From a virus, in IMG/VR virus record IMGVR_UViG_3300045988_180522: a stretch of 64,000 nt of DNA, one strand, 5' to 3'. Position numbers and translations under genes: made by a program. The notes under the pieces are model-generated. The model worked only from the letters and a program-made list of their open reading frames with translations. It had not been told where the DNA came from and searched no databases. Shown here in pieces: positions 5 through 51,440 of this stretch (within the stretch, counting starts at the first letter, position 1; each line of letters begins with the position of its first letter).

Positions 5-3000
5 ATGGAAGAGAATCAGATAGATGTGGTACAGTTCGACTCTGCTGTAAAAGTAGGGATACAGGGGGCTATAGATATCCCCCAGGGCCTGGAGGAGGAT
101 AATGTTTATGATCTGCTGATGAAGGCCACAGGAATAAGTGAGGGGGAAGAAAATACGGATGTGATACATACTATAGATTATAATGACTATGGGGAACAGC
201 AGGAAAATCCGGAACACTTCCTTGATGCACAGGGACTGGTGGGAGTACAGATCAGAAGACTGATATCTGCTGATATGTCACCGGAAGCAAATATTAAAGT
301 AGGTGACAGAACAATACCATTTACTGAATGGATGAATGAATATAATGCCCTGAATGTAGAAAATGTGCTTCAATCATATATGGCTACAAGTGAGATATTC
401 AGCGATAAGGCCATACTGAGCAGGATTCTTACAGAAGAGGCCAGAGGAGGGGCAAACTATAGCAATGAGCTTGTAAAATCCCTGAAACTGAATAGTAACG
501 GGGAATTCAGGATTCCTCTGTATGATGAATCTATGTCTAATAAGGTACAGCCTTTGCTGAACAGTATTATCAAGAACAGGATTACAAGACAAAAAATAAA
601 GGGGGGAGCCTGTGTACAGGTAAGTAATTACGGGCTTACAGATTCCCTGAATATAGTATTCGAAGGGGAAGGAAAAGACAGACATATCAAATATATTGAA
701 TGTTATATGCCATGGTATTCCAGAACACTGGTAGACGGAATGATGAAGGAAGGCTCACATGTACTGGATATCAGTAAAATACCTGATAGTATGAGAAAGA
801 TTATAGGATACAGGATCCCTACAGAGGATAAGTATTCTATGCTTCCGCTTTATATAAAAGGATTCCTTCCCCAACAGAGTGGAGGGGCTATTATGCTTCC
901 GTCCGATATTACTACAATCACAGGTAGTGACTTTGACGTAGATAAGATGTACCTTATGATTCCTGCATTCAGTGTCAGGGAAAAGCTTGACAGAAAAGCT
1001 GTTAAAAGGGACCTCAAAGAAAGATACAAGAGTATGAAGGACTATAATAACCAGATGGATATAGTCCTGGATGAGATAGTAAATGGAAAGATAGCCTTTA
1101 GTGAGGACTCCTTTGAGATGCAGGTGTATGATCATATCATGGATAACTATGATATATATCATACAAAATATGTTGATGCCGTAAAATACAATGATAACCT
1201 GTCGCCGAAGGAAAATGGTACTGATGCCAGGAATAACAGGATCATAGAACTGATGTGGGGTATACTTACGAATCCTGAGACAGCATTTAAGATGTTAAAT
1301 CCGCAAGGATTTGATAAGATCAAGGAGGCTGCAAGGGTAGCTGTCCTGCTTAAGACAGGAATAAGCCGTGAAGCTCTGAGAAAAGAACTGGGGAATGATC
1401 TTGTCTCAGGACTGAAAAACCTGAGTGTCAGAGAGCTGGATAACATGGTAGAGAAATATAAGATTCCGTATGATCCTTTAAGCCCTCTGACACAGATAGA
1501 GTTCCATAAGAATAATATGACAGGTCTCGGAATGGTTGGGATATATGCAAATCATAATACCCATCATGCCATATCACAATTCACAGATGTGTCTCTGAAT
1601 CCTGTGAATGGGGCCTTTCCTCTGTTAGGACATACTCTCACATCATTACACAGTCAGAAAGCTTTGGATGGTACCTATATAAGCAGGAATGTGTCAGGAT
1701 TTCTGGCTGCTTCTGTGGATAATGCTAAGGACCCTGTCCTGGAGGATTTAAATCAGAATACTTTTACATCTGATGCTTCCATGCTGTTATCAAGGCTCGG
1801 ATACTCAGCATTTCAGGTATCACTGATAATGAATCAGCCTATAGTCAGGGAAATGGCTGATGAATATATCAGGGCCTCCAGGACCGGGGAGGGACGCATG
1901 GATGTAGTAAACAGGATCAGCAATGACTGGATAAAGAGTGCTGACATAAAGAATCCTTCGAAGCTGAATATCAGTGATATTACAGAGGAAGAACTAATAT
2001 ACAATATTATGCAGTCGGTTCTTCCTGCTGATAAAAGATCTGCTTCATATGTAAGGAAACAGGCAGAATTTTCTAAGCTGTTCTCAAAGATAATGAATAC
2101 TGCTGAGGCCCTTGGAATGCTTGTAAGGGCTTCAAGATCAGACACACAGTCAGGAAGTGCCGGACCTTATATTGCTGATACCGAGATAAAGCTGAGAAAT
2201 ATTACATTACTCAGGGAGAAGATAGACTCAGGAAAATTTCCTCTTGATAACGCTGACTTTCTTAAAGATATACCAGTACTGGATGAAGATTCTTTAAGAA
2301 GAGATATACTGAACAGTAAAGTACCTATATTGCAGGCATTTTATACTCTCGGGATATTCAGTACAGGTAATATACTGTCAAGATATATGCCTCACCATCA
2401 GGATAATTTCAGGCAGGTTGTAAACAGTGTCGAATCCATGACTAAGACAGGGAGACTGAATAAGAAGACCCTGAAAACATTATATTCGGATCTGTTTACC
2501 TATATAATGAGTAAGACAGAGTTCTTTAATGAAAAATACAGAAAGGACTTTATCATGAACTTTCCTAACAGATTCAGTAATATAGTCAGTTCTGATCCTG
2601 AGATAGGTAATCTGGGATTTATAAAAGCTCTGAAGACAGATAAACCCTTTGAGAATTCAGATCTGTCAGTTCTTGGTATCTCCGGTGTAGGCAGGCTTAA
2701 TACTACTATGAAAGAGAATTTTTCACGGGACTGGGCCAACCTTCTTTATATGAATAATCCTTCTGCCAACAGACTTGCCCTTGATCTGTTCAGGTATGGT
2801 TATTTCAGGGGAGGATTCGGGTTCAGTCCTTCATCTTATATGCATCTGGCTCCTGTGGTACTTATAGAGAATATCCCCGGGTATATAGAGGCAGAGAGAG
2901 GGATTCTGGGATCTGAAGATGATTATTCTGCGTTTGTTACCCAGTTTGTCCGCAACCATCTGTCCAATAAGCTGCTGGTTCCTCAGACACTGGAGGGAAA

Positions 3001-3484
3001 TATAAAATTCACCGATAATAAGGGGGAATTCCTTAATACTGTACCCCTCAATACCAGGGATAAGATTACAGGAGATGATATGGGTATGGTGAAGGAGATA
3101 ATCAGGGATAAAAATAAGGTCAGGTATATATTCATGGACTTCATATCCAAGGAAAATAGTTCAGGTGATATAGCCTACTACAAACTGTCTGGTGATGGTA
3201 CATCCTATGACCGTATACAGCCACTGGGAGCAGATGGTATGTTCCCTGAGTACTCCTATGGAATAAATGGGGAAGTAATGTCTTCAACTGTTTCTGAAAT
3301 AGCCGACCTCCTGGACCTGAACAATTCGGAATATCAGGAAGATATGGATGACAGGAACTATAATCCATTATCCCAGCCGGAGGAAACCTATGAGAAAGTG
3401 TTACAGACAGAGAATAACAGATCTGAAATCATGAGATATGAACCAGTTGAGGTAATTACTTCAGATAATAAAAAGTTGTGTTAA
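5..3484 (+). CDS. Giant virion RNA-polymerase-like protein, C-terminal 1159 aa (5' end lies outside window)
   Basis: The open frame runs from the window edge. GSDFDVDKM at nt 923-949 (DFDVD at 929-943) resembles the NADFDGDQM metal-binding Asp-triad motif of multisubunit RNAP beta', as carried by the giant RNAP-like proteins of crAss-like phages. I recognised no other motif by eye. Confidence 0.5.
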   Translation: MEENQIDVVQFDSAVKVGIQGAIDIPQGLEEDNVYDLLMKATGISEGEENTDVIHTIDYNDYGEQQENPEHFLDAQGLVGVQIRRLISADMSPEANIKVGDRTIPFTEWMNEYNALNVENVLQSYMATSEIFSDKAILSRILTEEARGGANYSNELVKSLKLNSNGEFRIPLYDESMSNKVQPLLNSIIKNRITRQKIKGGACVQVSNYGLTDSLNIVFEGEGKDRHIKYIECYMPWYSRTLVDGMMKEGSHVLDISKIPDSMRKIIGYRIPTEDKYSMLPLYIKGFLPQQSGGAIMLPSDITTITGSDFDVDKMYLMIPAFSVREKLDRKAVKRDLKERYKSMKDYNNQMDIVLDEIVNGKIAFSEDSFEMQVYDHIMDNYDIYHTKYVDAVKYNDNLSPKENGTDARNNRIIELMWGILTNPETAFKMLNPQGFDKIKEAARVAVLLKTGISREALRKELGNDLVSGLKNLSVRELDNMVEKYKIPYDPLSPLTQIEFHKNNMTGLGMVGIYANHNTHHAISQFTDVSLNPVNGAFPLLGHTLTSLHSQKALDGTYISRNVSGFLAASVDNAKDPVLEDLNQNTFTSDASMLLSRLGYSAFQVSLIMNQPIVREMADEYIRASRTGEGRMDVVNRISNDWIKSADIKNPSKLNISDITEEELIYNIMQSVLPADKRSASYVRKQAEFSKLFSKIMNTAEALGMLVRASRSDTQSGSAGPYIADTEIKLRNITLLREKIDSGKFPLDNADFLKDIPVLDEDSLRRDILNSKVPILQAFYTLGIFSTGNILSRYMPHHQDNFRQVVNSVESMTKTGRLNKKTLKTLYSDLFTYIMSKTEFFNEKYRKDFIMNFPNRFSNIVSSDPEIGNLGFIKALKTDKPFENSDLSVLGISGVGRLNTTMKENFSRDWANLLYMNNPSANRLALDLFRYGYFRGGFGFSPSSYMHLAPVVLIENIPGYIEAERGILGSEDDYSAFVTQFVRNHLSNKLLVPQTLEGNIKFTDNKGEFLNTVPLNTRDKITGDDMGMVKEIIRDKNKVRYIFMDFISKENSSGDIAYYKLSGDGTSYDRIQPLGADGMFPEYSYGINGEVMSSTVSEIADLLDLNNSEYQEDMDDRNYNPLSQPEETYEKVLQTENNRSEIMRYEPVEVITSDNKKLC

Positions 3485-3485
3485 T

Positions 3486-6400
3486 ATGGCTTTAAGTTGT
3501 GCAATAATCCCGACTATCAAGGATAGTACAGGGAAAGAAAGAGAAAGTACATTATTTAAGGATCTGTTGAAGTATACAGGCTATAACAGGCCTGTTACGA
3601 AGGATATATACAGCCGGGTAAAAAATCCGGCTTTCACAGAAGATACAAAATCTGTACTCAGTTTTGATGATCTGGGGGAACCTACCATATCCTCACTGTA
3701 TGAGAAAGCAGGATTGGATAAGCTTCTGGATAAAGGAGCCGTAATGAAGGAAATGAAAAGGGGCCTGGAGGCTGTGGATTCAGAAGGAAGGGAGAGAGAA
3801 TTTGAAAGAAGGGAATATGATTCACTGATAAGAAGGGTAAATAAATTTAACAGGGAAAATCCTTTCAGAAGGGATTATGTGGCCGATGTTATGCCTGTAG
3901 AAGGAGGAACTCTGAAAATTACTGTAGAACCCAGAACAGAGCAGAATAAAGACAGGGAAGCAATTCTTGGGTATGATGAAGCCCTTAATAACAGACTGAG
4001 GGATATTATGGCGGAAGCAGGGGTTACATATGGGACCCTTACAGAACTTGAAGAGAGAAGAGGATTAACAGGTATTACTGATTTCAGTGTTGCAAGAGAT
4101 GCTGCCACAGGAATAGCAGAATTGATAAGAATTGCCAGAGGAGAAAAGGGACAGGCCGCATTACCTGAGGAATTTGCACACTTTGCACTGGCTGCATTAG
4201 GAAACAATCCACTGGCTGTGAGACTTATAAACCTGTCTTCTGATCCTGATATACAGAAAAGTGTATTCGGAGACCAGTTTGATAATTACAGGACAGTCTA
4301 TAAAAATGACAGTAGTATGATGGCTAAGGAGGCAGCCGGGAAATTACTGGCAAAACATCTCCTTAAGGGAGAAAAAACTGAAGGCCCGTATAAATCTCTT
4401 ATAGACCGTGTTATAAGTGCTGTAAAGAATTTATTCAGTAAGATCACTTCTTCAAAGATAGAACAGGCCATCATTGAAGCTGACAGGGAAGCAGGAGCTT
4501 TGGCAGGGAAAATCCTTACAGGAGAAATGAATAAGGAGATGAAACTGGAGAATATATCAGAAAGCAGTCAGTTCTACTCTCTGTCCGAAAAGGTGGATAA
4601 GGAGATTCCTGTAATCCAGAGAATTATAAACAGTGAGATTAAAAGACTTGCTATATATAAGAGGAGAAATCCCAATGACAAGCTTACGAGGGACCAGCTG
4701 TTACTTATAGATAACCTTGAAAGGTCAAGGGATGCCCATATGGAAAAGAAAGGTATTTTCCTGTTTATGAAGAATGCTTTAAACTACATGAAAGAAGCTG
4801 ATAAGGCCCTTAATGACCTGAACAGGGACAGTACTCTTACTACGAAGGATAAAGCATCAGGACTGAGAGATCTGAGGGAAACTATCAGTTCCTATAACAC
4901 GCTGATACAATATATACAGGATGATATCTCTCAGGAAGAGATAGGAGGAGAAGAGGCGGAGTATACCAGTGAGATGAAAGCTTATATAAATGAGCTGTCA
5001 GGGATTTCCGGTAAGGTATTCTCTAAATACAGAAAAATGGCTATAGCCTTGTTTACTGAAACTATGAGACCCGTTATAGGTGATAAGATAGTAGTCCCTA
5101 TAGGAAAGTTCAGGGATAGGGAGTACACTCTTGAAGAGCTGATAGCTTCTTCTGACTCAGATATATCAGTATTCAGCAGATGGCTTGACAGTATGGCAGA
5201 TAGCTCTGACATTATACATCAGGGAATAGACCGTATAGTAAAGAGACAGAGGGACAAAGCCAGAAAGAAGACTATTGAGTACCAGAAGGAGCTTGTCAGG
5301 GAGGGACTTATACTGGAACAATCCGGAACTAAGGGATTTGATTTCATGTTCAAGAAGGATAAGAATGGTAATCTCACAGGAAAGTATATTACAGAGGCAG
5401 ATCAGGATAAGTATTCAGAGGCTAAAAAGAAAATGTATTCCAGCCTTCATGAGAAGTATAAGGAGACCCGGTTCGGAATAAATAAAAAAGCTTACTGGGA
5501 TGAAGTGAATGCCTGGTATGACCAGAATACTGACATAGTAGGGGATACAAGAGTTCCTAAATTATCCATATATGGTGATCCGGACTTTAAGAAAATGACT
5601 GCTCCGCAGAGAAGATTTTATGATAAGGTAATGGAGATAAAAGCAGATCTTGACAGCATGCTTCCTGAAGGAGTGACCAGTATAGATAATGCTGTTCAGA
5701 TACGTAAGGATCTTGTGGAAAGGATACAAAATGCTTCAGGGGTAAAAGGAGGGGTCCGGGAGGTGGTAAAAAGTATCAAGGATTCTTTTGTCTCCCGTGT
5801 TGATGACACTGGCTTCTCCAGGACCCTTATTGATTCAGGAGGAAACGAGATACAGGAATTACCTATATATTATGTCAGTAAACTTGAAGATCCTTCACAG
5901 ATATCTACAGATGTGGTATCCACACTGTCTGCATATGCTTCTATGGCTCTGGATTATAATTATATGGGAGAGATACTGGACGAGATAGAAATAGGAAGGG
6001 ATGTACTGTATGAAAGGGAAATACAGCAGACAAAAGGAGGTAATCCTGTAATGGAATCATTCAGATCTGCCGGAAGGGAAGTGGTAAATAAACTGACAAA
6101 AAGGGGCCGGGGGGTGACTAATTTCACAGGAAGGCTGGACGACTATTTCCAGATGCAGGTATATGGAAAATATATGAATGATGAGGGGGACGTACTGGGA
6201 GTAAGCCTTGCTAAGCTGGCCAACAATATAAACAGGTATACATCTGCAAATAATCTCGGACTTAACCTGCTTGCAGGTATATCCAATGTTACCACAGGAT
6301 CTGTGATGATGAATATAGAATCCTTTACAGGTGAGTTCTTTGGAGCTAAGGATACAGCTACGGCAGACAGAAAATATATGAAGCTCCTGCCTGAACACCT

Positions 6401-7481
6401 GGCTGGTATAGGTAACAGGGTAAAGACAGACAAGCTGTCCCTGTGGGATGAGTACTTTGATGTAATGCAGGACTTTGATGAGAAGGTATATGACACAGGA
6501 TTCAACAGGAGAAACTGGTTTACAAAGCTGTTGGGATCGAATGCTGTATTTTTTATAAACACAGCAGGAGAACACTGGATGCAGAACAGAACATCGATGG
6601 CTCTGGCTAATAAGATAAAGGTAAAGGATGAAAGAGGTAATACTATACCATTATTCGATGCTTATGAAGTAGTCACTGAGAAGAAGGATGGAAAAACCGT
6701 AAAGGCATTCCTGAGGCTGAAGAAAGGGATTACAAAGGAAGACGGGACAAAATGGACTGAGGAAGATGAATTCAATTTCAAACAGAAGGCAGCTGCTATA
6801 AACCAGGGAATGCATGGTATTTATAATAAGGCTGACAGGTCTGCCATACAGAAACTGGCAGTAGGAAGACTGGCTATGCTGTACAGGAAATGGATCAGAC
6901 CTAACTATATGAAAAGATTTAAGGCGGCACGGTATAATATGGACCTGGGCCAGTGGACACAGGGGTATTACAATACTGCATTCGGGTTTATATATACTCT
7001 GATGAAGGATCTCAGAAGAATGCAGTTTCATCTGGCAGCACATTACCAGGAGCTTACAAAAGAGGAGAAATATAATCTGAGAAGGGCTGCTATAGAGGTA
7101 GGGCACTTTATAGGACTGGTAGCCTTCCTGGGTCTTATGGACTGGGAAGATGATAAGGAAAGACCCTGGCATATGCAGATGCTTGAATACCAGTCAAGGA
7201 GGTTATATACAGAACTGGGTGCCCAGATTCCCGGATTACAGATGATTGAAGAAGCTGGTAAAATTCTGAAACAGCCTGCCGCAGGTATAAATACTATTCA
7301 GAATATTATCAACACATTCAAGATAGTGATGCCGGGATCACTGGAAGAGATACAAACAGGAAGATATAAGGGATATACGAGAGCTGAGAAGTATTTACTT
7401 GAACTTATTCCTATGAGAAGGACTGTTATGAATGCTCTGAATCCTGATGAGACACTGGCTTTCTTTAAGTCTTCGTGGTAG
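3486..7481 (+). CDS. Large virion-associated protein (1331 aa), function unknown (possible RNAP-associated or cargo protein)
   Basis: A 4-kb ORF starts 1 nt after the preceding stop and shares codon usage with its neighbours. No catalytic motif was recognised. Confidence 0.55.
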   Translation: MALSCAIIPTIKDSTGKERESTLFKDLLKYTGYNRPVTKDIYSRVKNPAFTEDTKSVLSFDDLGEPTISSLYEKAGLDKLLDKGAVMKEMKRGLEAVDSEGREREFERREYDSLIRRVNKFNRENPFRRDYVADVMPVEGGTLKITVEPRTEQNKDREAILGYDEALNNRLRDIMAEAGVTYGTLTELEERRGLTGITDFSVARDAATGIAELIRIARGEKGQAALPEEFAHFALAALGNNPLAVRLINLSSDPDIQKSVFGDQFDNYRTVYKNDSSMMAKEAAGKLLAKHLLKGEKTEGPYKSLIDRVISAVKNLFSKITSSKIEQAIIEADREAGALAGKILTGEMNKEMKLENISESSQFYSLSEKVDKEIPVIQRIINSEIKRLAIYKRRNPNDKLTRDQLLLIDNLERSRDAHMEKKGIFLFMKNALNYMKEADKALNDLNRDSTLTTKDKASGLRDLRETISSYNTLIQYIQDDISQEEIGGEEAEYTSEMKAYINELSGISGKVFSKYRKMAIALFTETMRPVIGDKIVVPIGKFRDREYTLEELIASSDSDISVFSRWLDSMADSSDIIHQGIDRIVKRQRDKARKKTIEYQKELVREGLILEQSGTKGFDFMFKKDKNGNLTGKYITEADQDKYSEAKKKMYSSLHEKYKETRFGINKKAYWDEVNAWYDQNTDIVGDTRVPKLSIYGDPDFKKMTAPQRRFYDKVMEIKADLDSMLPEGVTSIDNAVQIRKDLVERIQNASGVKGGVREVVKSIKDSFVSRVDDTGFSRTLIDSGGNEIQELPIYYVSKLEDPSQISTDVVSTLSAYASMALDYNYMGEILDEIEIGRDVLYEREIQQTKGGNPVMESFRSAGREVVNKLTKRGRGVTNFTGRLDDYFQMQVYGKYMNDEGDVLGVSLAKLANNINRYTSANNLGLNLLAGISNVTTGSVMMNIESFTGEFFGAKDTATADRKYMKLLPEHLAGIGNRVKTDKLSLWDEYFDVMQDFDEKVYDTGFNRRNWFTKLLGSNAVFFINTAGEHWMQNRTSMALANKIKVKDERGNTIPLFDAYEVVTEKKDGKTVKAFLRLKKGITKEDGTKWTEEDEFNFKQKAAAINQGMHGIYNKADRSAIQKLAVGRLAMLYRKWIRPNYMKRFKAARYNMDLGQWTQGYYNTAFGFIYTLMKDLRRMQFHLAAHYQELTKEEKYNLRRAAIEVGHFIGLVAFLGLMDWEDDKERPWHMQMLEYQSRRLYTELGAQIPGLQMIEEAGKILKQPAAGINTIQNIINTFKIVMPGSLEEIQTGRYKGYTRAEKYLLELIPMRRTVMNALNPDETLAFFKSSW

Positions 7482-38138: not shown

Positions 38139-38525
38139 TTAGTCTACTGTTAAGGTCAGAATAGGAGAATTTCCTTCCCCTTGATCATACAATGTATAGA
38201 TCTCCTCTCCTTCCACCTCAAACAACCCAATCATGGGTCTTGCCGGGGCTTTTCCAGTTTCAATGATATGCTGTTGCACCTTATTGGCAACAGCCCCTGT
38301 CACATTTCCATCCTCAGTTCTAAAGGACAGGAATAAATTAGGCTGGCCTGTAATCTCATTAATCTTCTGAGGGTTCGGAACTACATCCAATCCACCCTTC
38401 ACTTCGAACTCCTCCAGGAACTCCTCCACAGTCCATGATTTTTTACATACCTCATTAAAGGTCCGTCCGTCACGTACATTCACATTGCTTTTACTGCCTT
38501 TTGATTTTCTTACTAAAGTTGCCAT
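38139..38525 (-). CDS. Hypothetical protein (128 aa), monocistronic unit in the intergenic region
   Basis: ORF with its own downstream terminator and an unusual G/C-tract plus A-tract upstream region. Confidence 0.5.
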   Translation of the reverse strand: MATLVRKSKGSKSNVNVRDGRTFNEVCKKSWTVEEFLEEFEVKGGLDVVPNPQKINEITGQPNLFLSFRTEDGNVTGAVANKVQQHIIETGKAPARPMIGLFEVEGEEIYTLYDQGEGNSPILTLTVD

Positions 38526-39776: not shown

Positions 39777-40061
39777 TAAAAGAGTCTAGGATTTTACCAG
39801 GAGATTCTAATTTTCTTAGATAAAGTCTATGATTTCACTAGGAAATATACTTATCAATTTTTGCGTATGTGAAGGATCCGGAGATAATTACATTTTTGTA
39901 GCTATTAGATACATCGTGTAATTATTGGCTACAAAAATGTATCTACAGTTCATATATAAATTAGAATTCTCAGATAGATAAAATAGGATATTAATAATTA
40001 GATAAGAATAAGGAAAATGAGAATATATGTCTTTGTATATCAAGCTGTTATATTAAAATAT

Positions 40062-40098
40062 AACTCACTATATAGTGTTTTCAACTCACTATATAGTG
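40062..40098. promoter_or_regulatory. Two copies of AACTCACTATATAGTG, each containing the perfect 12-bp palindrome CACTATATAGTG, centre-to-centre 21 bp (operator-like)
   Basis: Copies lie at 40062-40077 and 40083-40098, about 130 bp upstream of the first + strand late-block gene. Confidence 0.55.
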
Positions 40099-40225
40099 AG
40101 GAAGGCTTCTCATATAATGGTATAGGCTCACTTTTTTATTGAGAATATAGAATTTTTTTTCTTAATATTTTTGTTAGGATTACTTTTAAAACATATCTTT
40201 GTGCTTAGTATAACTAATAAATACA

Positions 40226-40741
40226 GTGAGAATGGAGACAAGAAAACAACTTGGAAGAAGGATAACAAGAGAGATCATAGATAATAATACTGGTGAAGTA
40301 CTTGTATCGGAAGATCTTGTAGTCAAAGTAGGAGATATAGATAAGTTTATAATGTTTTTTCTGACTAATAATGATTATTTCTATCACCTTACAGGCACTC
40401 AGATTAAGGTACTTTCTGTATTATGGAAGGAATCCACTTATAAGCAGGGAGATGAAGGGAATATAATCCATAATAATAAAAATTTAAAGACTTCTATAAA
40501 GAGTAAAATGCCATCTATAACAGATGGTATGATAGATAATGTATTCAGTACTCTTAGTAGGCAAAATGTGTTGATAAAAACATGTAAGGGTGAGTATATG
40601 CTGAATCCTGAATATTTTTTCAAGGGGAGACTAAGTGATAGGTCCAAATGCATTAAAAGGGTTGTGGAATTTGTTATTAAGCCTGAATCTATGAAATCCG
40701 TATCTGATGAGGAGTGTTTAAATCTGAATAGTGATCTCTGA
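40226..40741 (+). CDS. Hypothetical protein (171 aa), first gene of the + block; candidate DNA-binding regulator by position
   Basis: ORF immediately downstream of the palindromic operator-like sites. Confidence 0.4.
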   Translation: MRMETRKQLGRRITREIIDNNTGEVLVSEDLVVKVGDIDKFIMFFLTNNDYFYHLTGTQIKVLSVLWKESTYKQGDEGNIIHNNKNLKTSIKSKMPSITDGMIDNVFSTLSRQNVLIKTCKGEYMLNPEYFFKGRLSDRSKCIKRVVEFVIKPESMKSVSDEECLNLNSDL

Positions 40742-40793
40742 TATATAACGGATGTGAGTAGTAGAATGTTTTCTAAGTAATTAAAATTTAAAT

Positions 40794-42290
40794 ATGAAGG
40801 AAAGAGTAAACACAAAAGATGCAAGAGAGAAGCTTCTTGAAGGAGTAAGTATATTATCTGAGGCAGTATCACTGACCCTTGGTCCGTCAGGGAATACTGT
40901 GGTCATTACTGATGGGGACGGATCTCCTCATGTTACCAAGGATGGGGCTACTGTAGCACAGGCAGTGAGTGACCCTGATCCTGAGGTTAACTGTGGTATT
41001 GAGCTGGTAAGGCAGGCAGCCGTAAAGACAGCCAAGGAGGCAGGGGATGGTACTACCACTTCTACTGTACTGGCCAATGCTTTTATACATAATCTGAAGG
41101 ATTATGATCCTGTAGAAGCTTGTAAGGCGCTTGACTTCGTCACTTCGATGGTATCTGAGCTTATTTCACAGAAATCTGTAAAGATTGTAAGGAATATGGA
41201 TATGGTGGAAGGAGTGGCTACCATATCTGCAAACAATGATGGTACTATAGGCAGATATATCCGTGAAGCTTATGAGAAGACAGGGATGGGGGTGAATATT
41301 ATGCTTCTTGAAGGATTTGATGACAAGACTGTGGTATCTACCACAAAGGGGATAAAATTTGATAAGGGATATGAGTCTATAAGGTTTGTCAATAATCAGG
41401 ATAAGGGGGCCTTCGAGATATCAGACTGTGATGTGGTATTATTTGAGAATCCCCTGTGTGTATCTCAGGATATATTACAGGAGTACAGGCTTGATAAAGC
41501 TGTTCCTGTGCTCATCATAGGTCCTTCATTCTCAAGTGAGGTAATCAATTTCGGTATTTCTGCAAGAAGGTCAGGATATTCCGTATGTATGGTTCAGGCA
41601 GAGGGATGGGGGGATTCCCAGAGGGAGCATATCAGGGATATAGCAGCCCTTATATGTCCTGTATACAGTGAAGATATCAGCTATTACGGAAGGGTTGATA
41701 AGGTAATTGTCGATTCTATGTCTACTACCATCATAGGAGGCAAAGGCCATCCATCTTCTTATATTGCCAGCCTCCGGGCCCGGGCCGGAAACAGTGATGT
41801 GGAGGACCATAAGAACAGTCTTCTGGAAAGGGCATCTATACTGGAGAATGGTACTTGTTCCATTACTGTGGGAGCTAAGACTGAAGCAGAGCTGAAAGAG
41901 AAAATGGACAGGTATGATGATGCTGTGAGAGCTGTAAAATCAGCTGTAGAGGAAGGAGTATTGCCTGGAGGAGGAATTGCCCTGAGCAGAATTTCCGATG
42001 AGATCATGGAAAAAACGGAGACAGCAGGGGCCAGGAGGGATGCATTATTATGCTTGCATTCTGTAAGGGACAAGCTGTGTGAGATGTGTGGCATATCATG
42101 GTCATATGATGTAAATCAGGATTTCTTCACAGGATATGATTTCAGGAGAGGGAAAGAGGTGAACTGTCTGGAGGAAGGTATTCTGGATCCTGCAAAGGTA
42201 GAGAGGGTAGCTGTAGAGAATGCTGCCTCCGTAGCCAAGACTATTTTATCGACTAAATGTATAATCAATACCAGGGAGGACAGGTTATGA
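40794..42290 (+). CDS. groL: GroEL-family chaperonin (Cpn60), 498 aa
   Basis: LTLGPSGNTVVI aligns with VTLGPKGRNVVL, VTKDGATVAQAV with ITKDGVSVAREI, and AGDGTTTSTVLA with AGDGTTTATVLA. C-terminal LPGGGIALSR and GILDPAKVERVAVENAASVAKTILSTKC also match GroEL. It lacks the GGM tail. Confidence 0.85.
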   Translation: MKERVNTKDAREKLLEGVSILSEAVSLTLGPSGNTVVITDGDGSPHVTKDGATVAQAVSDPDPEVNCGIELVRQAAVKTAKEAGDGTTTSTVLANAFIHNLKDYDPVEACKALDFVTSMVSELISQKSVKIVRNMDMVEGVATISANNDGTIGRYIREAYEKTGMGVNIMLLEGFDDKTVVSTTKGIKFDKGYESIRFVNNQDKGAFEISDCDVVLFENPLCVSQDILQEYRLDKAVPVLIIGPSFSSEVINFGISARRSGYSVCMVQAEGWGDSQREHIRDIAALICPVYSEDISYYGRVDKVIVDSMSTTIIGGKGHPSSYIASLRARAGNSDVEDHKNSLLERASILENGTCSITVGAKTEAELKEKMDRYDDAVRAVKSAVEEGVLPGGGIALSRISDEIMEKTETAGARRDALLCLHSVRDKLCEMCGISWSYDVNQDFFTGYDFRRGKEVNCLEEGILDPAKVERVAVENAASVAKTILSTKCIINTREDRL

Positions 42291-42712
42291 AAAGGATAGT
42301 GAAAGTATTATTATGGATATGGCAGCTTCCCCAGAATGTACTCGGGATCCTGTTCATGCTCATTTTCTACAGGCCGTGGCACAGGCACTCTATAGCCTGT
42401 GTTGTGAAGGGTACTGCTGTAATCATACATTTTTTATGGTCGGAAAAGATGAAGGGAGGAGTAACTCTCGGTGAATATATATTTGTATATGGGAAAGACT
42501 TATATCATATAAGATCAGGATATACGGATATGGTAATAAAGCATGAATACGGTCATGTAAGGCAGTCCAGAATGCTTGGCCCCTTATATCTGATTGTCAT
42601 AGGTATTCCGTCATTACTGCATGCAGCAGTACATGACAGTCTGTGCAGGAATAAGGATTACAAGCATTTTTACACAGAAAAGTGGGCTGATAAGCTTGCC
42701 GGATTGAAATAA
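42287..42712 (+). CDS. Small membrane protein with HExxH zinc-metallopeptidase-like motif (141 aa)
   Basis: Its ATG overlaps the groL stop (ATGA). It has an N-terminal TM helix and KHEYGHVRQS. Confidence 0.45.
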   Translation: MKRIVKVLLWIWQLPQNVLGILFMLIFYRPWHRHSIACVVKGTAVIIHFLWSEKMKGGVTLGEYIFVYGKDLYHIRSGYTDMVIKHEYGHVRQSRMLGPLYLIVIGIPSLLHAAVHDSLCRNKDYKHFYTEKWADKLAGLK

Positions 42713-42787
42713 TCATTATATTTGCTGTGGATTTGTCATTTTCTATAAAAATCCATCATCTTGATTTATTTAAAAATATGTGAGTGA

Positions 42788-42818
42788 GCCACAGTCTTAT
42801 GACTGTGGTTTCATTTTT
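42788..42818 (+). terminator. Intrinsic terminator after the GroEL/HExxH operon
   Basis: GCCACAGTC-TTAT-GACTGTGGT forms a 9-bp stem followed by TTCATTTTT. Confidence 0.65.
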
Positions 42819-42912
42819 CCTCATATACTGTTATCCCGGTATAAATATTTTATTTATATTTGCATGTAGTAAATTGAATTAGTGATTAGTGGAGGGCCCT
42901 TAAGGGCTCTTT

Positions 42913-42985
42913 GGCCTGGTAACTCAATGCATAGAGTGACTCCGTCCTAAGGAGTAAGTTGCGGGTTGGAGTCCCGCCCGGGCCA
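42913..42985 (+). tRNA. tRNA-Arg (anticodon CCU), 73 nt
   Basis: By hand folding, the acceptor stem GGCCTGG pairs with CCGGGCC, the D stem ACTC with GAGT, and the anticodon stem ACTCC with GGAGT around loop GTCCTAA (U33, CCT, A37). The T stem GCGGG pairs with CCCGC around loop TTGGAGT, and the discriminator is A. The D-loop lacks GG and the T-loop has G56, consistent with a covarying C19-G56 pair. Confidence 0.7.
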
Positions 42986-43003
42986 CTGGTAAAAGTAAGA
43001 TAT

Positions 43004-43195
43004 ATGAAAGAGATGACTAAGGAAAAATGGATTATGTTTGTGGTTATAGTATCTGTACTTGCTATTATAGCCGGATTTGCAAAGTTATGTCCTTTCTGGG
43101 TTACCTTATCTGTGATCCTGTCCATGATCATAGGCTTTAATGCAGGATGGGTTTTCAGGAAATGGTATAGTGAAAATGTACACAATAATAAATAG
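43004..43195 (+). CDS. Small two-TM membrane protein (63 aa)
   Basis: MKEMTKEKWIMFVVIVSVLAIIAGFAKLCPFWVTLSVILSMIIGF. The longer ORF-track version (from 42959) would overlap the tRNA. Confidence 0.45.
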   Translation: MKEMTKEKWIMFVVIVSVLAIIAGFAKLCPFWVTLSVILSMIIGFNAGWVFRKWYSENVHNNK

Positions 43196-43203
43196 ATACA
43201 GTT

Positions 43204-43653
43204 ATGGAAATTATAGGAGACTTCGAACTGCCCGGAGATATAGAGAAATCCACCATCTCCCGGCCCTATGACATCAAAACATACCTCAACAGAATTGAAG
43301 GATACAAAACAAAGATCAAAAACCTCCACTGGTCTGTAAAGCTTCTCCCCTATATTGAGAAGAATGAGCTACATGAACATCTGGACGAACTTCTTGACCT
43401 GGTTTCTGACTATGAGGATGTGGTAGCAGAAAATTATATGGGAACTTTCGGGGTTCTTCCTCTTGGATTCCTTTCAGGTGTGCAGCCTGAAACAAATGAC
43501 CCTCTTGAACTTATTGATAAGATCAGGACAGATCTTGAAGGATTTCATTCTGCTTATTCTTCTGATCTGAAATACATAGGTATTATCAATGCTACTGAGG
43601 ATCTGTTACAGGAACTTCCGGTTAAAAAATACCTGATAGACCAATGCAAGTAG
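43204..43653 (+). CDS. Hypothetical protein (149 aa)
   Basis: ORF in the + strand block. Confidence 0.5.
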   Translation: MEIIGDFELPGDIEKSTISRPYDIKTYLNRIEGYKTKIKNLHWSVKLLPYIEKNELHEHLDELLDLVSDYEDVVAENYMGTFGVLPLGFLSGVQPETNDPLELIDKIRTDLEGFHSAYSSDLKYIGIINATEDLLQELPVKKYLIDQCK

Positions 43654-44039
43654 GATATCTGGAGGATACACGGTATATAATAGAATATGAAGTAGCTTCA
43701 AAGTCAAGGTACTACGGGGTGAAGTTGTCATATAAGGAGTCATGCACTGAACCTGTATCCTGTGAAGATCATGTTCTGTATACATGGACAATATACGCCA
43801 GTGTTCCGTATGACAGTACACAGAAAGTACCGGATTATAAAAAGCTCATGCCTGGTGATGTAAAGATAGAGGGAGATGTTGCAGTATGTGAACTTATACA
43901 GGTTACCACTGCCTGTGAGGGAACTGACACAGTATCTGCTTCTGACGGGACATACAGGTCCATACATCTTAATCTGAGAAGGGGTATAGACATGTACCTT
44001 GTAAACAGGCTGAAAAACTATGCGGGAATAAAGTACTAA
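43644..44039 (+). CDS. Hypothetical protein (131 aa)
   Basis: ORF followed by a terminator. Confidence 0.5.
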   Translation: MQVGYLEDTRYIIEYEVASKSRYYGVKLSYKESCTEPVSCEDHVLYTWTIYASVPYDSTQKVPDYKKLMPGDVKIEGDVAVCELIQVTTACEGTDTVSASDGTYRSIHLNLRRGIDMYLVNRLKNYAGIKY

Positions 44040-44064
44040 CCTTCATGATGTATAAATCTGACAG

Positions 44065-44095
44065 GAGCATAAAGATTTCTTTATGCTCTTGTTGT
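44065..44095 (+). terminator. Intrinsic terminator
   Basis: GAGCATAAAG-ATTT-CTTTATGCTC forms a 10-bp stem followed by TTGTTGT. Confidence 0.6.
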
Positions 44096-44141
44096 ATATA
44101 TTATTTATATGGTATATATTTGTGTGGTTAATCTATAGTAT

Positions 44142-44294
44142 ATGGATAAGAATATTTTATACAGGATAGTTGCTTTCGATACTCTGAGAGGCTTGGAAGA
44201 TTATCTTAACGCCAACAGTATTGACAGGGGATCTATTGTTTCGATACTTCCTAATGGAGGACAGTATATTCTTATATGGCTGAGGAACATATAA
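44142..44294 (+). CDS. Small hypothetical protein (50 aa)
   Basis: MDKNILYRIVAFDTLRGLEDYLNANSIDRGSIVSILPNGGQYILIWLRNI. Below the ORF-track size cutoff. Confidence 0.35.
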   Translation: MDKNILYRIVAFDTLRGLEDYLNANSIDRGSIVSILPNGGQYILIWLRNI

Positions 44295-44297
44295 ACT

Positions 44298-44513
44298 GTG
44301 GTTCTGATGGATACTGAAAATGAAGATAAGGTATATTATTGTGCCGGATGCCTGTCACTGGCTGTTGTGCAGTTTCAGGATCAGGATTATTGCCGTGACT
44401 GCGGAAGTGATGATATAAGGGTAGCCGGGATAGAAGAATGGGAAAAGTTATACAAGGATAAGTATCATAAATGTTTTATAAACCAAAAGAGAAATGAAGG
44501 AAGAAGAAGTTAA
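44298..44513 (+). CDS. Zinc-ribbon protein (71 aa)
   Basis: Has paired CxxC motifs, CAGC...CRDC. Confidence 0.45.
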   Translation: MVLMDTENEDKVYYCAGCLSLAVVQFQDQDYCRDCGSDDIRVAGIEEWEKLYKDKYHKCFINQKRNEGRRS

Positions 44514-44844
44514 AAAAGGTACTCCTGCACTTGGAGTAAGTAAGAAAATGTCATATGAGCAGATGGCTCAGCAGCTTAATACTGCACAGACTATTCTGGA
44601 TCAGCAGGCCGGGCAGTTCCGTGAATTGCAGAACAGATACAATATGGCAGTACGCCGTATTCAGGAACTTGAATACGGGAATGTAGCACTGCGTATCAAA
44701 ACATGTTTTGATGTGCTGGATCATGAATCTCATTTCAGTGTTGACTTTGTAAATGAGTGTGTGAAAGAAATCGAGGAAATTATGACCCCCAAGGCCCCGG
44801 AGGTGGAAGAAGAGGATAAGGAAAATCCGGATGCCGGGGAATAA
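44494..44844 (+). CDS. Hypothetical protein (116 aa)
   Basis: ORF in the + strand block. Confidence 0.45.
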   Translation: MKEEEVKKGTPALGVSKKMSYEQMAQQLNTAQTILDQQAGQFRELQNRYNMAVRRIQELEYGNVALRIKTCFDVLDHESHFSVDFVNECVKEIEEIMTPKAPEVEEEDKENPDAGE

Positions 44845-45217
44845 GAATATTCTCAGTATCCCTGTCAGGCCCCAGGATTTTTTCAGATCCTGGGTTGCTT
44901 TGACAAGGCCTGTACACAAGCTCACAGATACTGAATCGGAGGTATTTGCCTGTTTCCTTAAACACAGGCATGAGCTTAGTAAATCAATCAGTGACCCTGA
45001 CTTGCTGGATAAAGTACTTATGAGTGAGGATGTCAAGAAGAAAATCAGGGAGGAGTGCAATATCAAGGGCCCGCATTTTCAGATGGTCATGGTTAGAATA
45101 AGGAAGAAAAAAGTACTGGTAGGAGGGAAGTTTATAAGACTTCTGATTCCCAATCTTACCGATGAATCACAGCCTTTCGGGCTGACATTTGTTCTTGATA
45201 TACAAAATGCTGGATAA
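44831..45217 (+). CDS. Hypothetical protein (128 aa)
   Basis: ORF in the + strand block. Confidence 0.45.
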   Translation: MPGNKNILSIPVRPQDFFRSWVALTRPVHKLTDTESEVFACFLKHRHELSKSISDPDLLDKVLMSEDVKKKIREECNIKGPHFQMVMVRIRKKKVLVGGKFIRLLIPNLTDESQPFGLTFVLDIQNAG

Positions 45218-45524
45218 ATATATAAAAGAAGCATCGGAGAAATTCGGAGTTCCTGAAAAGGTAGTAAAGGCTGTATGTGATTCTGCTTGCAGGCTGGTTA
45301 AAAGGACTATGAGAGGAGTACATGCAAACCGTGTTCTTAGTGAGGAAGAATTCAGGGCACTCAAGCCATGTGTTAATTTCAGCGGTCTTGGAAAATTATA
45401 TATACCCTATACCAAGTATTCAAATATTAAATCACGCCGATTAGAAAAAGTAAAAAGATATCATGAAAGTATTAAAGAAAGTAACACCGAGATACACGAA
45501 GGTCCTGACCACAGCGAACATTGA
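45189..45524 (+). CDS. Hypothetical protein (111 aa)
   Basis: ORF in the + strand block. Confidence 0.4.
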   Translation: MFLIYKMLDKYIKEASEKFGVPEKVVKAVCDSACRLVKRTMRGVHANRVLSEEEFRALKPCVNFSGLGKLYIPYTKYSNIKSRRLEKVKRYHESIKESNTEIHEGPDHSEH

Positions 45525-45861
45525 AATCCAGAAAGCCTATTTTGCTGGTACGAATGTGGAGGATCCGGGTAAGACAATTACAGGTTATTCTTCTATTCAG
45601 AAAGTAGTAGCCTTAGGTCCGTCATGTACAGGATTGAAAGTAGGGGATCATGTGCTGATAGATTTTTCAAGATATGCCAGACCTGTACAGTCCCAGTCAC
45701 TCCGTAATCATGTGAAGGGGGAAGAATATTCTGTACAGATGTCTTTCAATATTCCGGTAATCATTCTTGATGGTGAGGAATACCTCGACCTCCAGGACAA
45801 TGACATCGTATATATTGTTGATGACTTTGAGGAAGTATCAGAATGTAAATGTGATGCATAA
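45463..45861 (+). CDS. GroES-like co-chaperonin (Cpn10 fold) candidate, 132 aa
   Basis: KVVALGPSC aligns with EVLAVGNGR, TGLKVGDHVLIDF with LDVKVGDIVIFND, and GEEYLDLQDNDIVYIV with NEEVLIMSESDILAIV. Confidence 0.45.
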   Translation: MKVLKKVTPRYTKVLTTANIEIQKAYFAGTNVEDPGKTITGYSSIQKVVALGPSCTGLKVGDHVLIDFSRYARPVQSQSLRNHVKGEEYSVQMSFNIPVIILDGEEYLDLQDNDIVYIVDDFEEVSECKCDA

Positions 45862-46421
45862 TGGAACTTGTCAGGTTTGAAAATTACGGTATTACCATAT
45901 CTCCGGAGGCCTTACTGATAAGGCCTCTTGCTGTATTATGGAAAAGGGATAAAAGTGTAGGAAAAGCAAAAGCCCTGCAAGAGATAGGGTATATTTATTT
46001 TATGTATGATCCTGCCTCGAACTACAGGATGGGAATACCTGATGAAGATGACAGGAAGGAAGAAATTCTCAGGGATTTAGGCCTCCCCCGGACCTGGAAG
46101 CCTGATAATGATGTACAGAAGGCTGTAGATTACTATATCAATATGCCTCATATGAATACAGAGGAAATAAATACACTGGATTCGTTTATGTCCCTTCTGA
46201 TTAAGATCAGGGACCAGTGTAAGAATATAGACTATACAGCATCGGATGATCCTATAAAGGCTATGAAGGATAGTATAGGTCTTATTAAACAGGTTCCGGA
46301 AGTAGTGGAATCCCTGTCAAAAACTAAAAAGTTAATACTGGCCTCTATAGAGGAAGAGGGCCGGAAGAGAGGTAAAACAATGAAAAAGATAGGAGAAGAT
46401 GGGTTCGGTAATTTCGTATGA
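45861..46421 (+). CDS. Hypothetical protein (186 aa)
   Basis: ORF in the + strand block. Confidence 0.45.
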   Translation: MELVRFENYGITISPEALLIRPLAVLWKRDKSVGKAKALQEIGYIYFMYDPASNYRMGIPDEDDRKEEILRDLGLPRTWKPDNDVQKAVDYYINMPHMNTEEINTLDSFMSLLIKIRDQCKNIDYTASDDPIKAMKDSIGLIKQVPEVVESLSKTKKLILASIEEEGRKRGKTMKKIGEDGFGNFV

Positions 46422-46719
46422 TGATCTCAGAAGGATGTCATTCGGGATCAACAGGTATCTTGATTCTATACGTGACAAAGCAGGGAGCCATGAGGAGAGC
46501 AGGATTTTCCTTGGATTTTCTTCATCTGTTAAAAAGGTGGGAGGGATCTCGCTTGGCAGGGAATATGTTATTTCTGTAATGTATAAGGGCCGGGAGGTGA
46601 GTAATATTATTACCAGGGATATGGATAGTGCTCCGGAACTGCTGGTGGAAAAGTTTATAGAACTCACACATGATGAGGATTTTATAAAGGAGGCTGTGTA
46701 TGGGAATAGTGATGAATAA
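46399..46719 (+). CDS. Hypothetical protein (106 aa), possible small terminase subunit by position
   Basis: Lies immediately upstream of and overlapping terL. Confidence 0.3.
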   Translation: MGSVISYDDLRRMSFGINRYLDSIRDKAGSHEESRIFLGFSSSVKKVGGISLGREYVISVMYKGREVSNIITRDMDSAPELLVEKFIELTHDEDFIKEAVYGNSDE

Positions 46720-49073: not shown

Positions 49074-51440
49074 ATGTATCAACTTAAGAATTTGCCGCCA
49101 CAGAAGCTCCCTTATACAAAGAAGACAAAGGAGTGGAGGAAGAAACATTTGGATTGGGCTGACAGGAAGTCATTTTTCAATGACAATTTTGTCCGCAAGT
49201 CCGTGATACATAAAATGATCAATTATGATCTTCTGAGAGGTAATCTGCATATGGGAGACCTTCAGATGATTATAAATCCTGATAATGTAGAGGCTGCCTA
49301 TATACCTGAAAAGATACAGCATTATCCTATCATGAATTCAAAGCTTGAGGTATTAAGAGGGGAGGAATATAAGAGAAGATTTGATTTCAGGGTAGTGGTT
49401 ACAGATCCTAACTCTATCAGTTTCAGGGAAGATCAGAAGAAAGAAGAGCTTTTCAGTGTCCTTCAGAGCATAATAGCCGATACCTCTGACAATGAGCAGC
49501 AGTTCAATGAAAGGGTCCAGGAGGCCAGTGATTATTATATGCATGAGTGGCAGGACCTCAGGGAAATAAGAGCCAATGCATTACTCAGGCATTATTATAA
49601 GGAGCTGGAATGTAGGGATAAATTCAATGACGGGATCATGGATGCCATGGCTGTCGGAGAAGAAATATATCAGTGTGAGATAGTATCAGGCGAGCCTGTG
49701 ATAAACAGGCTTAATCCTTTAAAGGTAAGGATATTCAGGAATGGATATTCAAACAGGGTAGAGGATGCTGATATGATAGTACTGGAAGACTTCTGGTCTC
49801 CGGGACGTATAATTGATTATTTTTATGATTCGCTGACAGAGGAAGATATAAACTATATAGAGAAAATCCCGTTCTCACCTGTTGAAGGAGACGATGATAT
49901 ACAGGGGATAGATGAAAGGGCAGGATTTATGTTCCTTCCTGATGAAGGAGGAGAAGCCTTCGGACAGGGAATAGTGCCTGACTCATCGGTATTCTTCGGG
50001 GAAATACCTGGCAGAAGTTCCATGTATTATGATCTGGCAGGTAATATAAGAGTACTCAGGGTATACTGGAAATCCAGAAGAAAGGTGAAAATGGTGACAT
50101 CATTCGATGAGAATGGTGATAAGGTGGTTACCTTCCAGAATGAAGATTATGTCATTTCGGAAGAACTGGGGGAGACAGAGAAGATCTTTTGGATAAACCA
50201 GGCTTGGGGAGGCACCAAGATAGGGAAAAATATATATGTGAATATGGGTCCTCTTCCTATACAGTTTTTTCGTATGTCAAATCCTTCAAGATGTCATTTC
50301 GGAATCATAGGGACTCTGTATAACCTGAATGATCATTCCCCGTTCTCTATGGTGGATATTATGAAGCCGTTCAACTACTTATATGATGCAGTATATGACA
50401 GGCTTGTAAAAGCTATATCATCATACTGGGGTACATTGTACGATCTTGACATGGCTCAGGTCCCGGAGGACTGGGATATAGATAAATGGCTGTATTTTGC
50501 CAAAGTATCCCATATAGCTGTAAAAAATAGCTTCAATGAAGGCTCGAAGGGGGCTGCTACAGGTAAGATCGCTGGTAACTACGCCAATAACAGCAGGGGT
50601 ATGATGTCTGCCGGGGATGGTAATTACATACAGCAACTGATCAATATACTGGAATATATCCCTGTCAAGATGTCTGAACTGATAGGTATATCAAGACAGA
50701 GGGAAGGTCAGATTGATAACAGGGAAACCGTAGGAGGAGTGGAAAGGTCTACCTTACAGTCGTCACATATTACAGAATGGCTGTTTATAAAGCATAACAG
50801 CCTGAAAAGGAGAGTACTGGAATGCCTTCTTGAACTGGCAAAAGCATGTGCCAGAGGGAGGACACTGAAATTCCCTTATCTGTTATCAGATAATTCACTG
50901 GCCATGTGTGAAATAGACGGGGATGAATTTGCTGAATCAGACTACGGACTGGTAGTGGATACTGACTCTGAAGTACTGGCTCAGAAGCTTGATGCTTTGG
51001 CTGCCAATGCTTTACAGCATAACAGGCTTGATTTTTCAACCATCATGAAAATATACACCTCACAGTCATTGGCTGATACCCAGAGGATGATAGAAAAGAA
51101 TGAGAAGGAGGTAAGAGACAGGGAGATGCAGGCACAGAGGGAGGCTAATGAGGTAAGGATGTCAGAGATAGAGAATGAATCAAGGATGCGTGAGGCAGAA
51201 CTTGCCCAGAAGCAGGAAGCTAACATACGTGATAATGAGACTAAGATACTTATTGCGGGAATGTCTTCCAATGAACAGGCCTCTCCCGGCCCAGGATCTG
51301 ATGAATTGCTGGAGAAAATAAGGCAGTTCAATGAAAAGATGAAGCTGGACAGAGAGAAACTGGCTCTTGACAAGACTAAGCATGATGATGATATAGCATT
51401 GAGAAAGAAGGAATTATCCTATAAAAATACTAAAAAATGA
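49074..51440 (+). CDS. Portal protein candidate (788 aa) with C-terminal coiled coil
   Basis: Size and position after terL support the call. The C-terminal Glu/Arg-rich heptads (EVRDREMQAQREANEVRMSEIENESRMREAELAQKQ) form a coiled coil. Confidence 0.5.
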   Translation: MYQLKNLPPQKLPYTKKTKEWRKKHLDWADRKSFFNDNFVRKSVIHKMINYDLLRGNLHMGDLQMIINPDNVEAAYIPEKIQHYPIMNSKLEVLRGEEYKRRFDFRVVVTDPNSISFREDQKKEELFSVLQSIIADTSDNEQQFNERVQEASDYYMHEWQDLREIRANALLRHYYKELECRDKFNDGIMDAMAVGEEIYQCEIVSGEPVINRLNPLKVRIFRNGYSNRVEDADMIVLEDFWSPGRIIDYFYDSLTEEDINYIEKIPFSPVEGDDDIQGIDERAGFMFLPDEGGEAFGQGIVPDSSVFFGEIPGRSSMYYDLAGNIRVLRVYWKSRRKVKMVTSFDENGDKVVTFQNEDYVISEELGETEKIFWINQAWGGTKIGKNIYVNMGPLPIQFFRMSNPSRCHFGIIGTLYNLNDHSPFSMVDIMKPFNYLYDAVYDRLVKAISSYWGTLYDLDMAQVPEDWDIDKWLYFAKVSHIAVKNSFNEGSKGAATGKIAGNYANNSRGMMSAGDGNYIQQLINILEYIPVKMSELIGISRQREGQIDNRETVGGVERSTLQSSHITEWLFIKHNSLKRRVLECLLELAKACARGRTLKFPYLLSDNSLAMCEIDGDEFAESDYGLVVDTDSEVLAQKLDALAANALQHNRLDFSTIMKIYTSQSLADTQRMIEKNEKEVRDREMQAQREANEVRMSEIENESRMREAELAQKQEANIRDNETKILIAGMSSNEQASPGPGSDELLEKIRQFNEKMKLDREKLALDKTKHDDDIALRKKELSYKNTKK

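Follow-up and report, generated by a model that had tools for sequence, protein, structure and literature searches.

The model for a phage-encoded co-chaperonin that acts on the GroEL of the host is gp31 of bacteriophage T4, in which the missing roof and the longer loop are adaptations that let the protein enlarge the GroEL cage. Phages that encode a GroEL, phages that encode only a GroES, and phages that encode GroEL followed by GroES have all been documented (PMC5649160), and phage genomes with GroEL>GroES operons are known from virioplankton (Marine et al. 2017, PMC5649160). Here we analyze a pair of this kind in a 64,000-nucleotide stretch of viral DNA, IMG/VR record IMGVR_UViG_3300045988_180522 (the whole stretch is called the window below), where a gene for a GroEL-like protein of 498 amino acids (aa), groL, is followed 3,172 nt downstream by a gene for a 132-aa protein assignable to the Cpn10/GroES family. 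About nine genes and one tRNA lie between the two. For brevity, the 132-aa protein and its relatives are called lid proteins, after their putative role. The pair in the window adds a further case to a known kind, since the lid gene is conserved among crAss-like phages and both genes have been annotated before in relatives.

We assign the window phage, a gut phage, to the crAss-like phages of Steigviridae type because its gene content and gene order match theirs. The order in the window, with the ΦcrAss001 names in parentheses, is HExGH protein (Gp4), Dps-like (Gp7), VpsT-like (Gp13), HU-like (Gp14), the 132-aa protein (Gp15), Gp16-like, large terminase subunit TerL (Gp19) and portal (Gp20). 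Judging by nucleotide sequence, the phage and Dulem virus 41 are essentially the same: the circular Dulem virus 41 genome of 92,940 bp (PP511520.1), from lemur faeces, has an end that is 99% identical to positions 40000-46699 of the window. In the annotation of PP511520.1, the 498-aa gene is a 'GroEL protein' (XCD04890.1) and the 132-aa gene is a 'hypothetical protein' (XCD04917.1). The paper on the Dulem viruses makes no mention of GroEL, and a search of a literature library for chaperonins or GroEL in crAss-like phages found no paper that discusses the pair.

The 498-aa protein is, by its sequence, a divergent group I chaperonin. It matches the Pfam family Cpn60_TCP1 (PF00118) with E-value 9e-39 (133.9 bits, gathering cutoff 34.3) and PHROG 5725 'chaperonin groEL' with 1.1e-102, and its residues 5-491 align to residues 6-524 of GroEL in the PDB (8wuw_A, 1.5e-76), spanning the equatorial, intermediate and apical domains. 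An earlier reading of the same DNA, made from the letters and open reading frames alone (the sequence-only reading), had called this protein GroEL-like, and the call is borne out by the database matches and the intact ATPase site; the lack of a GGM tail stated there is likewise correct. The NCBIfam GroEL models are matched at about 1e-94 (308-317 bits), which is below their curated cutoffs of 352-582 bits, so that the protein is best seen as a divergent member of the family and not as an equivalog of cellular GroEL. Among PDB chaperonins, the best E-value for bacterial GroEL (1.5e-76) is far ahead of those for EL gp146 (1.4e-31) and the OBP chaperonin (4.5e-15); being so much nearer to bacterial GroEL, the protein is grouped with the lid-dependent type of chaperonin. 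In a collection of 5.8 billion proteins, cellular homologues do not exceed approximately 38% identity, and above that level there is only a small clade of phage proteins (P0004-P0010, 497-507 aa, 43-99% identical). The phage GroEL is therefore not a recent capture from a host.

Alignment with E. coli GroEL (reference identical to PDB 4pkn_G) reveals that all ATP-binding, Mg-binding and catalytic positions are kept: T30, L31, G32, P33, K51, D52, G53, D87-T91, I150, S151, D398, G415, G416 and D495. These include D87 and D398, the key ATPase residues that the sequence-only reading had singled out. The GDGTTT motif is present, the hinge glycines are conserved, and N479-A481 has diverged to D-F-R within a gap-rich region. 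Fifty-one residues of E. coli GroEL are absent, among them the entire C-terminal tail with its GGM repeats and short apical segments; the phage protein ends in ...CIINTREDRL, with no Gly-Met tail. On this comparison, the phage GroEL looks catalytically competent and of canonical type. Conservation fails at the contact between the rings: among the positions compared (K105, A109, R452, E461, S463 and V464), K105 has been lost to a deletion and four carry substitutions (A109D, R452D, E461S, V464Y).

Evidence for the 132-aa protein comes mostly from its family. Searches of Pfam, PHROGs, NCBIfam and PDB with the single sequence gave just sub-threshold matches to the 'GroES-like domain' of alcohol dehydrogenases (ADH), such as Pfam ADH_N at E-value 0.0037. 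An exhaustive profile search collected 279 representative clusters of related proteins, all of 120-160 aa. Pfam Cpn10 is reached by 21 of the 116 lid-family members, the best with E-value 9.8e-8, and the profile of the family finds Cpn10/GroES structures as its top PDB matches (1.3e-4 to 2e-3), led by Cpn10 of M. tuberculosis (1.3e-4) and E. coli GroES (2.6e-4), with residues 2-96 of GroES covered. Structure prediction by AlphaFold2 (AF2) from a 115-sequence alignment gave a GroES-type β-barrel with a mean predicted local distance difference test (pLDDT) of 90.9 and a predicted template modelling score (pTM) of 0.79; a model based on a 4-sequence alignment, for which a word-indexed search had supplied three relatives, had pLDDT of 45.5 and was discarded. 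Foldseek comparison of the lid model with viral models returned matches that are mostly named co-chaperonin, GroES or Cpn10. By sequence and predicted fold, then, the 132-aa protein belongs to the Cpn10/GroES family, at the family level. The suggestion of a GroES-like protein about 3 kb downstream of groL holds at that same level, and the fold proposed for it is the one modelled. Of the two profile matches that had been anticipated, Cpn60_TCP1 was found with groL, and Cpn10 was found with relatives of the 132-aa protein and not with the protein itself. GroES-like motifs are likewise there, except that the letters quoted in the sequence-only reading are the GroES versions; the window protein has VVALGP, LKVGDHVLIDF and DGEEYLDLQDNDIVYIV.

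In the lid family, the features kept from GroES are the N-terminal Pro strand, Q-x-V-x-A-V-G, K-V-G-D and the C-terminal strand. The loop (residues ~22-44) is 3-4 residues longer than that of GroES and is variable and indel-rich across the family; at the position of G24-I25-V26-L27 of GroES, many members have G-[LI]-[IV]-D. The roof β-hairpin is missing, owing to a nine-residue deletion relative to GroES 46-56. Two elements of the lid are absent from GroES: a hairpin insertion of ~25 aa (residues ~69-97, with pLDDT of ~67 at the tip) and an acidic C-terminal tail. Polar residues in the loop tripeptide and roofless lids are common among the viral co-chaperonins surveyed by Marine et al., and T4 gp31 is likewise without the roof hairpin (PMC5649160).

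The insertion and the tail, together with the failure of the window protein to match Cpn10 on its own, could be taken to mean that a GroES-like fold has been put to a non-chaperonin use, with the Gp16-like protein as a possible partner in packaging or assembly. The gene for the latter is invariably the next one downstream, and 89 of 90 loci have both it and the cpn10-like gene; the TAA of the lid gene overlaps its ATG (TAATG, window 45859-45863), and the two genes stand directly upstream of TerL. We nevertheless consider such a role improbable, as the best sequence and structure matches of the family are true co-chaperonins along the whole length of GroES, as these matches take in the N-terminal Pro strand, AVG, KVGD and the C-terminal strand that makes the heptamer interface, and as the 21 members mentioned above match Pfam Cpn10 directly.

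A tblastn search with the 132-aa protein identified 52 phage records, all of them crAss-like (30-42% identity), most of which label the gene 'putative 10kDa chaperonin [phiCrAss001]'. The position of the gene is conserved, in the order HU-like, Gp15, Gp16-like, TerL, portal, within a region syntenic with ΦcrAss001 Gp13 to Gp20; on sequence and synteny, we regard it as the orthologue of ΦcrAss001 Gp15. Searching IMG/VR with a 12-sequence lid alignment gave 79 loci with a lid gene, 57 of which are informative because their upstream sequence extends to 6 kb or more. In 17 of these 57 loci, a GroEL-like gene on the strand of the lid gene is found 1.3-3.2 kb upstream of it, with a product of 490-520 aa that lacks a GGM tail; there is none in the remaining 40. 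The closest metagenomic homologues of the lid lie on contigs too short to reveal a GroEL gene. When lid proteins are clustered at 90% identity, 6 clusters are GroEL-plus, 29 are GroEL-minus and 9 could be placed in neither group; no cluster mixes the two states, even at 50% identity, so GroEL presence or absence is stably retained within lid lineages. In GenBank, GroEL is found upstream of the lid also in cr108_1 (Pipoluvirus; GroEL annotated, lid 'hypothetical'), in cr111_1 and in the cultured Cellulophaga phage phi14:2. The cultured Bacteroides crAss-like phages with a lid gene (ΦcrAss001, DAC15/17, PhiCrAssBcn1-25) are not among the GroEL matches, and the only Bacteroides phages that are consist of six unrelated ones of 167-179 kb.

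The GroELs of different crAss lineages share 28-35% identity with each other and are located at differing points of the gene block. In a neighbor-joining tree of TerL, GroEL-plus lineages appear in several places, and in a neighbor-joining tree of GroEL the crAss proteins form three to five long branches that are not exclusive of cellular GroELs; these crude trees fit either a single old gain followed by losses or several gains.

The presence of the lid in so many GroEL-less phages means that its function cannot depend on a phage GroEL, and in such relatives it would have to use the GroEL of the host. The sequence-only reading had proposed a dedicated pair that replaces reliance on the host, and the 40 of 57 loci with a lid and no GroEL do not fit that part of it.

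We lean towards a scheme in which the phage GroEL and the Cpn10-like lid form a folding machine for late proteins, with the lid serving host GroEL as well in relatives of the window phage. The Cpn10-like protein would form a heptameric lid, the loop of which would dock on the apical domains of the GroEL ring in its ATP state; once docked, the lid would shut the cage in which late proteins of the phage fold. The obvious client would be the major capsid protein, annotated with 481 aa (~53 kDa). With its roofless dome and extended loop, the lid would make the cage larger, as T4 gp31 does. The lid thus appears as the conserved component, which in GroEL-less relatives must act on the host chaperonin; in the lineage of the window, the phage-supplied GroEL probably uses the same lid, and would either raise the chaperonin capacity or make the phage independent of the GroEL of its host.

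Several observations, besides the missing Cpn10 match of the window protein, weigh against this scheme. The lid reads G-T-N-V-E-D (G29-T30) in its loop, with one hydrophobic residue where GroES has I-V-L, and pLDDT is ~90 in the modelled loop, which is therefore not marked as disordered. No systematic difference was found between the lid loops of GroEL-plus and GroEL-minus phages, and hence there is no sign of co-adaptation of the lid to phage GroEL. In the apical groove of the phage GroEL, S201 is kept but Y203R, L237Y and V264S are altered, and there are apical deletions of two residues in helix H and of one residue after helix I. Finally, groL and the lid gene are separated by two terminator-like hairpins (consensus matches), and a shared transcript is therefore not assured. 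The two hairpins, both on the plus strand, would divide the block into groL-HExGH, tRNA-Dps-p131, and a unit with the lid gene.

Some of these points would also fit two proteins that act separately, the lid on host GroEL only and the phage GroEL with host GroES or without any lid. Such an arrangement is consistent with the conservation of the lid irrespective of whether a phage GroEL is present, with the sameness of the loop in the two groups of phages, with the remodelled groove and lost inter-ring contacts of the phage GroEL, and with the parting of the genes by hairpins; moreover, lid-independent phage chaperonins exist, such as EL gp146 (PMC5649160). On balance we think separate action rather unlikely, though it deserves to be taken seriously. 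The phage GroEL belongs to the canonical bacterial type and not to the EL/OBP type; most groove positions are still hydrophobic (Y199, F204 and L234 are kept, and L259I and V263I are conservative); and in every GroEL-plus lineage the two genes share a strand, with no more than 1.3-3.2 kb between the GroEL gene and the lid gene.

The folding machine of phage GroEL and lid may be part of a broader picture, which we offer only tentatively. The Gp15 family could be a gp31-like specialized lid that retools the GroEL of Bacteroidota for the capsid protein of the most abundant group of human-gut phages; lineages of the window type could add to it a complete, host-independent chaperonin, which may be single-ring because its ring-ring contacts are not kept; and the patchy occurrence of GroEL could reflect repeated loss or gain that tracks the adequacy of host GroEL.

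Immediately downstream of groL is a gene for a small HExGH protein, the start of which overlaps the groL stop as ATGA (ATG at 42287-42289, TGA at 42288-42290); an alternative start is the ATG at 42257. The motif is HEYGH in the window protein, and HExGH is invariant in nine aligned homologues, the full set of invariant residues being H86, E87, G89, H90, Q93, S94, H112 and E131. By hydropathy, residues 8-26 and residues 97-115 are candidate membrane segments, and we describe the protein, with these two hydrophobic stretches, as a putative minimal zincin. The family has no match in Pfam, NCBIfam, PHROG or PDB profiles, and the searches did not recover, at E-value of 1 or below, the 'DUF4157' that is noted for ΦcrAss001 Gp4.

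The ATGA overlap, the invariant motif and the direct adjacency of HExGH and GroEL genes in a 44% identical relative (L003), as in the window, would be compatible with a chaperone-protease module in which the HExGH protein is the functional partner of phage GroEL. We give this idea very little credence. Homologues of the HExGH gene are found in 25 loci, GroEL-less ones included, and are present in the GroEL-less ΦcrAss001 (Gp4), cr126_1 and DAC15-type phages; in cr108_1-type and L043-L046/L064-type loci, the HExGH gene is 2-6 kb away from GroEL; and no peptidase family is detectable with Pfam, NCBIfam or PDB profiles. Since the gene occurs in GroEL-less phages and kilobases away in other GroEL-plus lineages, the ATGA coupling is lineage-specific, and the gene is, by sequence comparison, a separate conserved crAss gene that is not GroEL-specific. 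The overlap noticed in the sequence-only reading is real, and the two candidate segments agree with the membrane protein named there; a partnership with GroEL is not supported.

In one locus (L017 6450-6854, IMGVR_UViG_3300045988_124835), the HExGH homologue has in-frame stops aligned to conserved Gln, reading W-V-W-*-I-L-*-N-L (asterisks, stops) against W-I-W-Q-L-P-Q-N-L. Recoding of stop codons to Gln is known in some crAss-like phages, and these stops fit such recoding.

Features of the locus are collected in Table 1. TerL and portal follow the chaperonin genes on the same strand, which agrees with the placement of the chaperonins ahead of packaging and portal genes in the sequence-only reading.

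Table 1. Genes and other features in and around the chaperonin locus of the window.
Feature	Position	Strand	Evidence
RepL-like, first gene of plus-strand block, directly upstream of groL	40226..40741	+	Pfam RepL 1.2e-5
GroEL-like, divergent group I chaperonin, 498 aa	40794..42290	+	Pfam PF00118, PHROG 5725, PDB GroEL, NCBIfam GroEL
Small HExGH protein, 141 aa from ATGA-overlapping start	42287..42712	+	homologue of ΦcrAss001 Gp4
Terminator-like hairpin 3' of HExGH gene, 11-bp stem	42786..42811	+	consensus match only
tRNA-Arg (CCT)	42913..42986	+	tRNA arrays at this position in relatives
Dps-like, ΦcrAss001 Gp7 homologue	43204..43653	+	weak Pfam DUF5856 and NCBIfam Dps; tblastn 8e-15
Terminator-like hairpin between Dps-like block and cpn10-like block, 16-bp stem	44059..44094	+	consensus match only
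ΦcrAss001 Gp13 homologue (VpsT-like regulator)	44831..45217	+	tblastn 45% identity, 4e-31
ΦcrAss001 Gp14 homologue (HU-like), overlaps cpn10-like start	45189..45524	+	tblastn 1.4e-7
Cpn10/GroES-family protein, 132 aa, ΦcrAss001 Gp15 orthologue	45463..45861	+	family profile, fold, synteny
Gp16-like protein, 186 aa	45861..46421	+	PHROG 16390, function unknown
Large terminase subunit TerL, 757 aa	46700..48973	+	PHROG 6681 6.5e-79
Portal	49074..51440	+	same strand, after TerL

The RepL-like protein scores 25.3 bits with Pfam RepL (cutoff 20.3), and PP511520.1 labels it 'replication protein'. Upstream of it the coding strand switches, with ~1.7 kb of gene-poor sequence between the end of the minus-strand genes at 38525 and the beginning of the plus-strand block at 40226. 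This interval is a possible replication or regulatory region, because the RepL-like gene comes immediately after it. The single tRNA-Arg (CCT) sits where ΦcrAss001, cr126_1 and cr111_1 have arrays of ~15-25 tRNAs, and a listed 78-aa open reading frame at 42959-43195 overlaps it. The Gp16-like gene and the following 106-aa gene occupy a place in which one could expect a small terminase subunit, and have no informative family match. At the start of the window there are two very large plus-strand open reading frames, 5-3484 (1159 aa) and 3486-7481 (1331 aa).

TerL of Dulem virus 41 has 1119 aa, against 757 aa in the window; the difference is a 362-aa in-frame insertion between window residues 345 and 346, with flanks that are 100% identical. 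The insertion resembles an intein, carried by the Dulem virus 41 isolate and absent from the window. A relative, L010, has a TerL of 1167 aa with a weak LAGLIDADG match.

The label 'putative 10kDa chaperonin' has been in use for lid orthologues since ΦcrAss001. That tentative annotation now has solid fold-level support, and it gives a name to the 'hypothetical' gene of Dulem virus 41, cr108_1, phi14:2 and others. Among Steigviridae-type lineages, roughly one in six to one in three have, besides the conserved lid, a fast-evolving GroEL of their own. ΦcrAss001, which has the lid only, and phi14:2, which has lid and GroEL, are both culturable and offer a ready comparison for the folding of the capsid protein.

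Among crAss-like phages, the uncultured cr111_1 (Lahndsivirus rarus, MT774387.1) has both 'chaperonin GroEL' and 'putative 10kDa chaperonin' annotated, and shares with the window the order GroEL, VpsT-like, HU, 10kDa chaperonin, Gp16-like, terminase. Its GroEL is ~29% identical to that of the window and comes after the Dps gene and a tRNA array, whereas the window GroEL precedes the HExGH gene; the gap between GroEL and lid is 1.3 kb in cr111_1 and 3.2 kb in the window. ΦcrAss001 (MH675552.1) has an orthologous lid, Gp15, at the same position relative to HU, Gp16, TerL and portal; unlike the window, it has no GroEL within the 22 kb examined, so that its lid would have to rely on the GroEL of the host. 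Cellulophaga phage phi14:2 (Akihdevirus balticus), a cultured phage of the crAss order with a marine host, encodes a tail-less GroEL of 490 aa (g105), 30% identical to that of the window, and a 129-aa lid homologue annotated as hypothetical (g096) directly upstream of g095 and the terminase; g096 matches both the lid-family profile (29.5 bits) and the lid model (Foldseek 5.7e-6).

Farther afield, T4 gp31 is 11% identical to the window lid, and the two do not make one sequence family at this level; the crAss lid has the extra insertion of ~25 aa, and T4, unlike the window phage, has no GroEL of its own. In virioplankton phages, GroEL and GroES are described as an operon, whereas the genes of the window are 3.2 kb apart. 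The chaperonins EL gp146, OBP gp246 and AR9 gp228 share with the window GroEL the lack of a Gly-Met tail and altered ring-ring contacts; they are co-chaperonin-independent, whereas the window genome encodes a lid.

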